DNA of 64,000 bases from Escherichia coli (GTDB lineage Bacteria > Pseudomonadota > Gammaproteobacteria > Enterobacterales > Enterobacteriaceae): NCBI RefSeq assembly GCF_003334255.1, contig NZ_QOWU01000025.1. One strand, given 5' to 3'. Below the pieces are notes generated by a model. It searched no databases. It saw only the letters and a program-made list of their open reading frames with translations, and had not been told where the DNA came from. Positions 63,375 through 64,000 of the stretch are shown in pieces. The translations under genes and the position numbers were made by a program. How positions within the stretch are numbered: position 1 is the first letter of the stretch; every line of letters starts with the position of its first letter.

Positions 63375-63520
63375 GGTCTTCTCGCAAGTCGAAAAATATG
63401 ACGCTACTTTAGCGTAATTGCTTGATTTTGTCGCTGATGGCGAAGGAGAAGAAAATTCAGGAAATGGATAAAGGAGTTATTTAGAAATGAGATATTTTTG
63501 AAGGAAATTTTTTGGAGAAG

Positions 63521-63537
63521 ATGGTGCATCCGGGAGG
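63521..63537 (-). repeat. 17-nt copy of the tRNA-Arg 3' end (acceptor/T-arm fragment) in spacer
   Basis: tggtgcatccgggagga matches the first 17 nt of the reverse-strand tRNA-Arg gene but continues into non-tRNA sequence. Confidence 0.6.
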
Positions 63538-63654
63538 ATGACTCACTGACGTTCGCCCTTCGGGCCGTTGCTGGCGCAACGTTATCCTTCCTGGTGCCTG
63601 CGGTTAATACCGCTATCTCTTCGATACCTTCATTGCTGAAGGTTACGGAGAATA

Positions 63655-63731
63655 TGGTGCATCCGGGAGGATTCGAACCTCCGACCGCTCGGTTCGTAGC
63701 CGAGTACTCTATCCAGCTGAGCTACGGATGC
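63655..63731 (-). tRNA. argQ: tRNA-Arg (anticodon ACG), 77 nt
   Basis: Reverse complement gcatccgtagctcagctggatagagtactcggctacgaaccgagcggtcggaggttcgaatcctcccggatgcacca; anticodon loop ggctACGaacc; CCA encoded; first tRNA after yqaB. Confidence 0.9.
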
Positions 63732-63794
63732 ATCGGGAAAACTTATTCTACTGCTGATATTGATACCGCTACTAAAGCCATATCAATTAAGAGA

Positions 63795-63813
63795 TGGTGC
63801 ATCCGGGAGGATT
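63795..63813 (-). repeat. 19-nt copy of the tRNA-Arg 3' end in the next spacer
   Basis: tggtgcatccgggaggatt followed by non-tRNA sequence; same arrangement as 63521..63537, 275 bp period. Confidence 0.6.
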
Positions 63814-63929
63814 ACTCGCCTTGCGGCTCGCCCTTCGGGCCGTTGCTAAAGCAACGTTATCATCCCTAGTGCCTGCGGTTAATTCCGCTACCTCTTCGAT
63901 ACCTTCATTGCTGAAGATTTCGGAGAATA

Positions 63930-64000
63930 TGGTGCATCCGGGAGGATTCGAACCTCCGACCGCTCGGTTCGTAGCCGAGTACTCTATCCAGCTGAGCTAC
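63930..64000 (-). tRNA. argZ: tRNA-Arg (ACG), second copy, truncated by window edge (5' six nt outside window)
   Basis: tggtgcatccgggaggattcgaacctccgaccgctcggttcgtagccgagtactctatccagctgagctac is identical to the argQ gene over 71 nt and runs to the window end. Confidence 0.85.

Follow-up and report, generated by a model that had tools for sequence, protein, structure and literature searches.

What are the partial copies of a tRNA 3' end that accompany tandem tRNA-Arg genes in Escherichia coli, and what is the structured sequence to which each of them belongs? The question arises near the end of the window, by which we mean the whole stretch of 64,000 nucleotides that was analysed, where the 17-mer TGGTGCATCCGGGAGGA occurs on the plus strand at 63522, 63655, 63795 and 63930, four copies within the last 480 bases. 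Allowing up to two mismatches recovers the same four matches only in the window, and the motif is absent, even with two mismatches, from 100 dinucleotide-preserving shuffles of the whole window. Two of the copies belong to argQ and argZ as their true 3' ends; the remaining pair is partial, identical to the tRNA-Arg 3' end at 19 of 19 positions (63795-63813) and at 18 of 19 (63522-63540). A direct-repeat search returned a 173-nt repeat of 94% identity at a spacing of 275, as well as a four-copy 30-nt family around the tRNA-end motif, and Tandem Repeats Finder reported no period-275 repeat in the window, which holds fewer than two full units. An earlier account drawn from the letters alone, here called the sequence-only reading, had described two tRNA-Arg(ACG) genes 275 bp apart with starts at 63655 and 63930, copies of 17-19 nt of the tRNA 3' end at 63521 and 63795, and a conserved element after each copy. 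The spacing, the existence of both copies and the presence of the element in both spacers are right, while the direction is not: the genes lie on the minus strand and the supposed starts are their 3' ends, 63521 should read 63522, and on the transcript the element precedes the copy. The GC hairpin and motif which that reading noticed are indeed in both copies, as GCCCGAAGGGC on the transcribed strand and as the CTTCAGCAATGAAG hairpin, and its central observation, that the spacers bear a conserved structured element together with a partial tRNA 3' end, was borne out.

Over its last 700 bases the window matches E. coli K-12 MG1655 at 100% identity, and the locus has a match in 5426 of the 5426 complete E. 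coli genomes searched. It is the yqaB side of the serV-argVYZQ operon; in the K-12 record alaS, csrA, serV, argV, argY, argZ, argQ, yqaB, yqaA and gshA follow one another on one strand, which is the minus strand of the window. Read as transcribed, a tRNA-Arg gene leads into an element of 133-135 nt, then a 63-nt leader, then the next tRNA. Both elements, raZ and raQ, lie on the minus strand and begin 1 nt past argZ and argQ, respectively, and the tRNA-end copy, CCA included, forms the last 19 nt of each. The features of the region, in order of transcription, are:

63930..64000, minus strand: argZ, tRNA-Arg(ACG), its 3' 71 nt, cut by the window end (Rfam tRNA 50.5 bits, 5'-truncated); the complete gene is at 3131-3207 of the extracted K-12 locus (K-12 annotation)
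63795..63929, minus strand: the element raZ, 135 nt, between argZ and argQ (Rfam RtT, fold, covariation, name in PMC8144298)
63732..63794, minus strand: leader of argQ, 63 nt, UCUCUUAAUUGAUA...CCCGAU
63655..63731, minus strand: argQ, tRNA-Arg(ACG), 77 nt (ARAGORN; Rfam tRNA 67.1 bits; tRNA-Arg in the K-12 annotation)
63522..63654, minus strand: the terminal element raQ, 133 nt, after argQ (Rfam RtT 22.8 bits, fold, alignment to raZ)
63401..63415, minus strand: weak hairpin of terminator type, ACGCUAAAGUAGCGU and then CAUAUUUUU, downstream of raQ and ahead of the yqaB start codon (consensus scan only)

The last of these is given as context, a weak candidate for which we claim no role as operon terminator. 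Rfam matches to Plastid-ycf2 and HPnc0260, antisense to the tRNA, were judged artefacts, as were the open reading frames of the region.

The spacer elements raZ (63795-63929) and raQ (63522-63654) are very probably members of a known family, the tRNA-linked repeats (TLRs), similar to the Rfam RtT RNA and present here in the serV-argV-argY-argZ-argQ operon. TLRs were first seen by Egan and Landy (1978), and Rudd (1999) counted 22 of them at ten K-12 loci, both as cited in PMC8144298. Their hallmark is that the final 18-19 bp, at the TLR 3' end, reproduce exactly the 3' end of whichever tRNA or rRNA gene stands upstream (Stenum et al., 2021, PMC8144298). The three TLRs of the arg operon carry the names raV, raZ and raQ, and the strain table of that paper has delta(argY/Z/Q, raQ/Z/V) as one of its deletions of the 22 TLRs, together with a strain deleted for all 22 TLRs (PMC8144298). 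We identify the window elements as raZ and raQ because the table names raQ/Z/V together with argY/Z/Q. Like the TLRs of K-12, raZ and raQ lie directly 3' of a tRNA gene in a tRNA operon, show the 18-19-nt 3'-end identity (19/19 and 18/19) and share the family core, with GCAACGGCCCGAAGGGCGA exact in both; aligned to each other they are identical at 118 of 135 positions. In a comparison covering these traits they do not differ from the K-12 TLRs and are the same thing. The elements, their hallmark 3'-end repeat and their names are thus already known from the literature and EcoGene. Papers found to mention argVYZQ deal with tRNA levels or anticodon mutations, not with the spacers, and a literature search for RF00391 returned method lists only. 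More than 40 years after TLRs were first seen their function is still not established, and an early link of rtT RNA to amino-acid starvation has been retracted (PMC8144298).

Why, then, are these elements not labelled in the databases? The gathering score of the Rfam RtT model (RF00391) is 45 bits. Against it raZ scores 31 bits (33.5 as a truncated hit; E=8e-5), raQ 22.8 bits over the full model length and the third K-12 element 29.2 bits, all of them below the gathering score, and a gathering-threshold Rfam scan of the whole window reported no RtT. RefSeq and annotation pipelines miss the arg elements because scores of 22.8-31 bits fall under the 45-bit cut-off: the K-12 RefSeq record has no RtT annotation at the arg locus, and at the K-12 tyrT locus it has four features called 'RtT sRNA', each ending in the last 19 nt of tRNA-Tyr. 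The rtT RNA of the tyrT operon was reportedly described by Bosl and Kersten in 1991. The kinship is nonetheless recognisable, the alignment of the arg elements to the model being convincing over its 3' two-thirds (AACGUUGC-loop-GCAACGGCCCGAAGGGCGA, a short hairpin, GAGUAAUCC and the tRNA 3' end). RtT and the arg elements have in common the CGUUGC hairpin, GCCCGAAGGGCGA, a variable hairpin, GAGUAAUCC and the tRNA 3' end, and the helix that in RtT encloses the internal hairpins recurs in the consensus of 21 arg-type elements described below; an exact 19-nt core, GCAACGRCCCGAAGGGYGA, is common to the K-12 arg elements and the RtT sRNAs annotated at tyrT. In E. coli the arg elements are of a short form, in which 81-83 nt separate the core from the tRNA end, as against 115-124 in the Tyr type; they lack both the CUCG...CGAG hairpin and the AACCNN...NNGGUUCGA hairpin of the Tyr type, having two other 5' hairpins instead. 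Elsewhere the model scores 94.5 bits after Pro(CGG), 79.7 after Lys, 70.8 after a Yersinia Arg(ACG) and 52 after Glu, and 27.9 bits for copies linked to 5S rRNA. Because of their low RtT scores, we regard the E. coli arg and the 5S-linked copies as divergent and under-annotated members of the family.

The sequence-only reading had taken the arrangement for a serial duplication of a tRNA and its flank in which a partial 3' end was retained, and had named an interrupted periodicity in the rest of the array as one finding that would speak against it. The array does not keep a 275-bp period: in K-12 the tRNA start-to-start distances are 275, 139 and 275, and the parts follow one another as below.

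serV to argV: 3 nt apart
argV-argY spacer: 198 nt, element plus leader
argY-argZ spacer: 62 nt, leader only
argZ-argQ spacer: 198 nt, element plus leader
3' of argQ: terminal element

The leaders are identical to one another at 56-59 of 63-65 aligned positions, and the whole 62-nt argY-argZ spacer of K-12 is of the same leader type as that of argQ. What follows ...CACCA is accordingly of two kinds, UAUUCUCCG... where an element starts and UCUCUUACUUGAUA... where a leader starts, and tRNAs without a TLR, argY among them, continue directly into the post-TLR leader UCUCUUACUUGAUA. The junction between argY and its leader is the one to be expected if recombination between a tRNA 3' end and the 19-nt copy of an element had removed that element. 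A K-12-like array is found in 3489 of the 5426 E. coli genomes. The strains examined carry 2-4 tRNA-Arg genes and 1-3 elements, and a terminal element lies 3' of the last tRNA-Arg in all six E. coli arrays examined:

K-12: 4 tRNA-Arg, 3 elements
strain C4: 2 tRNA-Arg, 2 elements
O157:H7 BB24-1 and NCCP 13906: 4 tRNA-Arg, 1 terminal element and a truncated spacer of 102 nt
O18: 3 tRNA-Arg, 1 terminal element

Unit duplication and deletion have thus reshaped the array, as the duplication account had it, but the partial 3' end is not a by-product of that process. It is not peculiar to the array, because it is the defining trait of a family found behind many tRNAs and 5S rRNA, nor is it a mere leftover, because the copy also base-pairs inside the element. 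The repeated 19-mers and the tRNA genes would double as recombination substrates, which would account for spacing that is irregular and copy numbers that differ from strain to strain.

The pairing of the copy emerges from the predicted fold, whose parts in raZ, all on the transcribed (minus) strand, are as follows:

63916-63903: 5' hairpin CUUCAGCAAUGAAG
63888-63875: hairpin GCGGAAUUAACCGC
63872-63859: 5' strand of the closing helix
63856-63841: CGUUGC-UUUA-GCAACG
63840-63830: GCCC-GAA-GGGC
63827-63818: hairpin B, GCCGCAAGGC
63813-63795: 19-nt copy of the tRNA-Arg 3' end

The minimum free energy is -50 kcal/mol for raZ (z=-4.3) and -49.9 kcal/mol for raQ (z=-4.8); across the three K-12 elements it runs from -50 to -60 kcal/mol with z from -4.3 to -5.4, none of 200 shuffles doing as well. 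An alignment of 21 different short forms of the arg type, whose sources include Escherichia, Enterobacter, Kosakonia, Phytobacter, Brenneria and Hafnia, gave a consensus. It comprises a 5' hairpin, GCGG...CCGC, and a 13-bp closing helix, GCACC.AGGGAGGAU paired with AUCCUCCCGG.AUGC, which leaves ACCA free and encloses the CGUUGC-loop-GCAACG hairpin, GCCC-GAA-GGGC and a short hairpin of variable sequence; the 3' strand of this helix is supplied by the tRNA-end copy. Standard pairs occupy 96.2% of cells in this alignment, as against 29-52% when partners are slid by 1-3 columns, and pairs changed on both sides number 10 as against 2-4 in the slid controls; none of 500 shuffles of the 21-element alignment reaches the observed pairing values. 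The two central hairpins are invariant in the alignment and so uninformative on pairing, the covariation coming from the 5' hairpin, the variable hairpin and some of the closing helix. In raZ and raQ this helix has one or two mismatches relative to raV (GGGAUGAU and GGAAGGAU as against GGGAGGAU).

Modelled in this way, the closing helix looks like an acceptor/T-arm minihelix of tRNA-Arg in which the T-loop is replaced by three hairpins, with 78 nt from the first G of the helix to the CCA. Its 5' strand, GCACCAGGGAGG, differs at 2 of 12 positions from the 5' strands of the tRNA-Arg acceptor and T-stem (GCAUCCG+GGAGG). We do not count this likeness as evidence of descent, because complementarity to the tRNA-end copy would by itself yield it. 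The Arg 5' strand forms a duplex with a mean energy of -19.5 kcal/mol with the Arg end, compared with -11.8 to -17.7 with the ends of other classes, and in all four classes with at least 4 members (Arg, Tyr, Lys and Pro(tgg)) the tRNA end of the class itself is the best pairing partner. Conservation of the 3' strand may in part reflect homogenisation with the adjacent tRNA gene and not selection on the RNA.

What such a structure would do within the transcript was another point of the sequence-only reading, which saw in the hairpins a possible processing or termination signal. Termination or attenuation, with the GC hairpins stopping or pausing transcription between tRNA genes, is highly improbable. 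Stable GC-rich hairpins are present, and the related rrnB element does sit between the terminators T1 and T2 (PMC8144298), but no U-run follows any element hairpin on the transcribed strand: the minus strand from 63522 to 63929 has no GC hairpin followed by a U-run, the sole minus-strand match being that at 63415-63401, downstream of raQ, and the two terminator-like matches inside the elements are on the non-transcribed plus strand. Moreover, transcription has to pass through elements to reach argY and argQ, which must be expressed, and in other genera (Lys and Pro classes) a separate terminator follows the element. The processing half of the suggestion is plausible. In the rRNA-operon TLRs the repeated 3' end has been proposed to take part in precursor processing, with RNase E suggested for RrB (PMC8144298), whose 5' end lies 3 nt past the 5S end, at a known RNase E site, and whose 3' end lies 3 nt past the repeat; processing to a discrete RNA has been shown for RrB and, historically, for rtT (PMC8144298). 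By analogy, raZ and raQ are probably excised from their precursor by the enzymes of tRNA 3'-end maturation, a release that we consider probable because each element has a tRNA-like end with a U/A-rich trailer behind it. RNase E cleavage of the polycistronic precursor followed by 3' exonuclease trimming would then free the element as a discrete RNA. A cut by RNase P at the foot of the minihelix-like helix is speculation.

The family reaches well beyond this operon. A search for the core GCAACGRCCCGAAGGGYGA, with each bacterial species represented by a single genome, yielded at least 120 loci. Once tRNAs had been placed with ARAGORN, at least 100 of the core copies among the matches listed proved to have a tRNA immediately upstream, which is Tyr(GUA), Arg(ACG), Lys(UUU), Pro(UGG), Pro(CGG) or Glu(UUC), and 90 of the 100 tRNA-linked elements listed match the last 19 nt of their own tRNA at 17 or more positions. 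In at least 12 other loci the core follows closely on a 5S rRNA gene and the element closes with AACUGCCAGGCAU, as the 5S gene itself does; where the 5S of one genome among the matches listed ends differently, the copy bears the same variant. The hosts, again among the matches listed, are Enterobacterales together with Gilliamella, Zophobihabitans, Photobacterium, Marinobacterium and Amphritea. About 7 of the listed core matches, in GC-rich genomes and with no tRNA nearby, were set aside as chance matches, some 9 being estimated to arise by chance.

This distribution bears on a rival view in which the partial copies concern tRNA-targeting integrases, either as decoys, the sequence-only reading having suggested a test of whether such integrases recognise them, or as attL/attR-like direct repeats left by integration. 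Many tRNA-gene att sites are said (Williams, in 2002) to span the T-loop to the CCA, and the block of identity here does likewise run from the T-loop (AAUCC...) to the CCA. Even so, an integrative origin is very improbable and a decoy role is without support. Only about 116 nt separate the repeats, with no integrase-like frame and no credible open reading frame among them, the only long one being a 123-aa frame antisense to the tRNA; one and the same core stands behind at least six tRNA species and 5S rRNA, which a single site-specific integrase would not target; and the copy takes part in the pairing of a conserved RNA fold.

For the origin of the elements we offer a tentative account that we ourselves consider unlikely. 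Each TLR would derive from a pseudo-copy of the 3' portion of its upstream stable-RNA gene, into which one conserved insert of about 65 nt has been set at a constant position, the break falling in the T-loop at UUCGA/AUCC in tRNAs and at GAGAGUAGG/AACUGCC in 5S. The E. coli arg short form would amount to a tRNA-sized RNA of 78 nt, a near-complete minihelix with free ACCA, which RNase P and the 3'-end enzymes might release and which might mimic or compete with tRNA-Arg ends, and the insert would perhaps have spread from one stable-RNA gene to another as a small mobile or gene-converting module. In the 5S-linked copies the insert does lie between GAGAGUAGGA and AACUGCC. The Yersinia nurmii element contains tRNA-Arg positions 22-59 (33 of 37 identical), a 66-nt insert and positions 60-77, and the trailer and terminator of the tRNA are repeated after it. 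Long-form TLRs have the cognate T-stem 5' strand and TTCGA just before the insert, with fewer mismatches than non-cognate 10-mers, a comparison that came out positive for the long forms alone. In local alignments of the 5' part with the cognate tRNA the similarity is clear only in Yersinia nurmii (50, compared with 24 for the best non-cognate) and marginal in the Tyr type (20-22, compared with 17). The same alignments of the E. coli arg short form gave no tRNA similarity beyond the helix strands (10-14, compared with 13-19), and with such scores we do not claim raZ and raQ as recognisable pseudo-tRNAs beyond their T-stem and acceptor strands.

The Yersinia nurmii element, in which tRNA-Arg positions 22-59 and 60-77 are clearly present, would also suit another view, according to which the elements are neutral debris, decaying pseudo-copies of tRNA-Arg left by unequal crossing-over, with no role of their own and with the 19-mer as their best-preserved remnant. 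That the copy number is polymorphic and the internal elements are absent from O157:H7, O18 and other strains points the same way, as do the lack of an established function after more than four decades and the construction of a strain without any of the 22 TLRs (PMC8144298). Decay without function is a possibility to be kept in mind, albeit an improbable one: a core of about 65 nt that is not of tRNA origin is kept from Escherichia to Gilliamella, Photobacterium and Amphritea, behind various tRNAs and 5S rRNA; compensatory changes keep the hairpins paired, which neutral decay would not; and the terminal element is retained in the six E. coli arrays examined. Any role of the arg TLRs is, for all that, dispensable under laboratory conditions, because the internal TLRs are missing from many E. 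coli strains and the strain deleted for all 22 TLRs exists.

If the elements have a role, it might be exerted in trans, the excised element titrating a protein or pairing with other RNAs. One precedent is offered by RrA, RrB and RrF, situated between the dual terminators of rrnA, rrnB and rrnD, which belong to the same family, share its core and repeat the end of the upstream gene at their 3' end; they are co-transcribed and excised (PMC8144298) and follow 5S rRNA, whereas raZ and raQ follow tRNA. RrB binds CsrA and Hfq in vitro, binding of both proteins in vitro is ascribed to RrA, RrB and RrF alike, and a sponge-like or trans-acting role involving these proteins has been proposed for the three (PMC8144298). 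A second precedent comes from the glyW-cysT-leuZ operon, where RNase E frees 3'ETS-leuZ in the course of tRNA-precursor processing. This by-product could act in trans, and a sponge function has been demonstrated for it, as related in PMC8144298 (Lalaouna et al., 2015); we found in it neither a sequence relationship to raZ or raQ nor a repeat of the tRNA 3' end. The arg elements have strong structure, and their rate of synthesis would be that of a tRNA operon. That csrA lies immediately upstream of the operon we regard as a coincidence and not as evidence. A sponge or trans-acting RNA is unlikely in this instance, since the tRNA-operon TLRs are, by the same account, predicted not to bind CsrA, the predictor giving values below 0.01 for all 19 of them, the phenotypes of rrA, B and F deletions are modest (PMC8144298), and our analysis identified no target.

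As a discovery the two elements carry little weight, being already in the literature under their own names. The Rfam gathering score and PGAP leave the arg-operon copies unlabelled and so invite their repeated 'rediscovery'. They belong to a family that is without an established function even though it resides in some of the most heavily transcribed operons, and one of whose rRNA-operon members rides on many expression plasmids within the rrnB T1-T2 terminator region. It is their anatomy, a minihelix-like helix with an insert at the position of the T-loop and with flanks cognate to the upstream gene, that makes the old question of TLR function cheaply testable.

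Downstream of 5S rRNA genes too, the matches listed in the scans for the conserved non-tRNA core of the tRNA-linked repeats (TLRs) include copies of that core, at loci L007, L041, L043, L044, L047 (E. coli), L053, L054, L075, L076, L083, L084 and L108. These 5S-linked elements close with 13 nt copied from the 5S 3' end and the CAAAU trailer, and the next feature along is tRNA-Thr, tRNA-Asp or a terminator; at L108, a local variant of the 5S end is also present in the TLR copy. In rrnB the 5S-linked core element occupies the stretch from terminator T1 to T2, which many cloning vectors carry. 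The same point is made by Stenum et al. (PMC8144298).

A composite structure is displayed by the minus-strand TLR that follows tRNA-Arg(ACG) in Yersinia nurmii (L077), whose first part matches tRNA-Arg positions 22-59 (identity 33/37), whose middle is the conserved 66-nt insert, sited in the T-loop after TTCGA, and whose last part resumes with positions 60-77. A second copy of the tRNA-Arg trailer, terminator hairpin included, stands 3' of this TLR. Among the matches listed, elements of the RtT/TLR type were found beyond Enterobacterales as well, in Gilliamella (L016, L017, L073, L074), Zophobihabitans (L029), Photobacterium (L059, L080), Marinobacterium (L018) and Amphritea (L040), with scores of 90.8 bits for a Gilliamella element downstream of tRNA-Pro and 66.6 bits for the Amphritea element downstream of tRNA-Arg(CCG). 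In both Arg(CCG) cases, identity between the 3' copy and the tRNA end is just 13/19.

Within E. coli, the tRNA array between csrA and yqaB is itself variable, with two to four tRNA-Arg genes and one to three TLRs in the strains compared, among them C4 (L123), O157:H7 BB24-1 (L124), NCCP 13906 (L125), O18 (L126) and SCPM-O-B-8794 (L046). The O157:H7 array has a 102-nt spacer with a TLR-like start and no core, and a K-12-like array occurs in only 3489 of 5426 E. coli genomes.

The operon is flanked as follows (L001, the K-12 locus):
L001 4033-4218: csrA, directly upstream of serV-argVYZQ
Window 63401-63415, minus strand: weak terminator-like hairpin, a 6-bp stem then CAUAUUUUU

CsrA is reported in PMC8144298 to be bound in vitro by rRNA-operon TLRs; that csrA adjoins the TLR-bearing serV-argVYZQ operon on its upstream side is probably coincidence. 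The weak hairpin, about 105 nt past raQ, the TLR after argQ, and about 25 nt ahead of the yqaB start codon, raises the question of tRNA-operon readthrough into yqaB-yqaA.

Scans of the window returned other RNA features:
2048-2186, minus strand: RyfD
5492-5617, plus strand: Phe leader
23487-23849, plus strand: tmRNA, tag ANDENYALAA
31626-31701, minus strand: tRNA with anticodon CAT, Met per ARAGORN, which could instead be lysidine-modified tRNA-Ile
53998-54075, plus strand: naRNA4
60673-60744, plus strand: MicA

Antisense to the tRNA-Arg genes (plus strand; L001 3530-3601, window 63657-63731), an ARAGORN 'tRNA-Arg(tcg)' and sub-threshold Rfam matches to 'Plastid-ycf2' and 'HPnc0260' were rejected as artefacts.

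At tyrT, RefSeq/PGAP annotation includes four 'RtT sRNA' features, with none in the arg operon (window 63522-63654 and 63795-63929; L001 3411-3544), whose TLRs score 22.8-31 bits against the Rfam RtT cut-off of 45 bits. The unlabelled arg TLRs are an annotation gap in a family that is itself already known.
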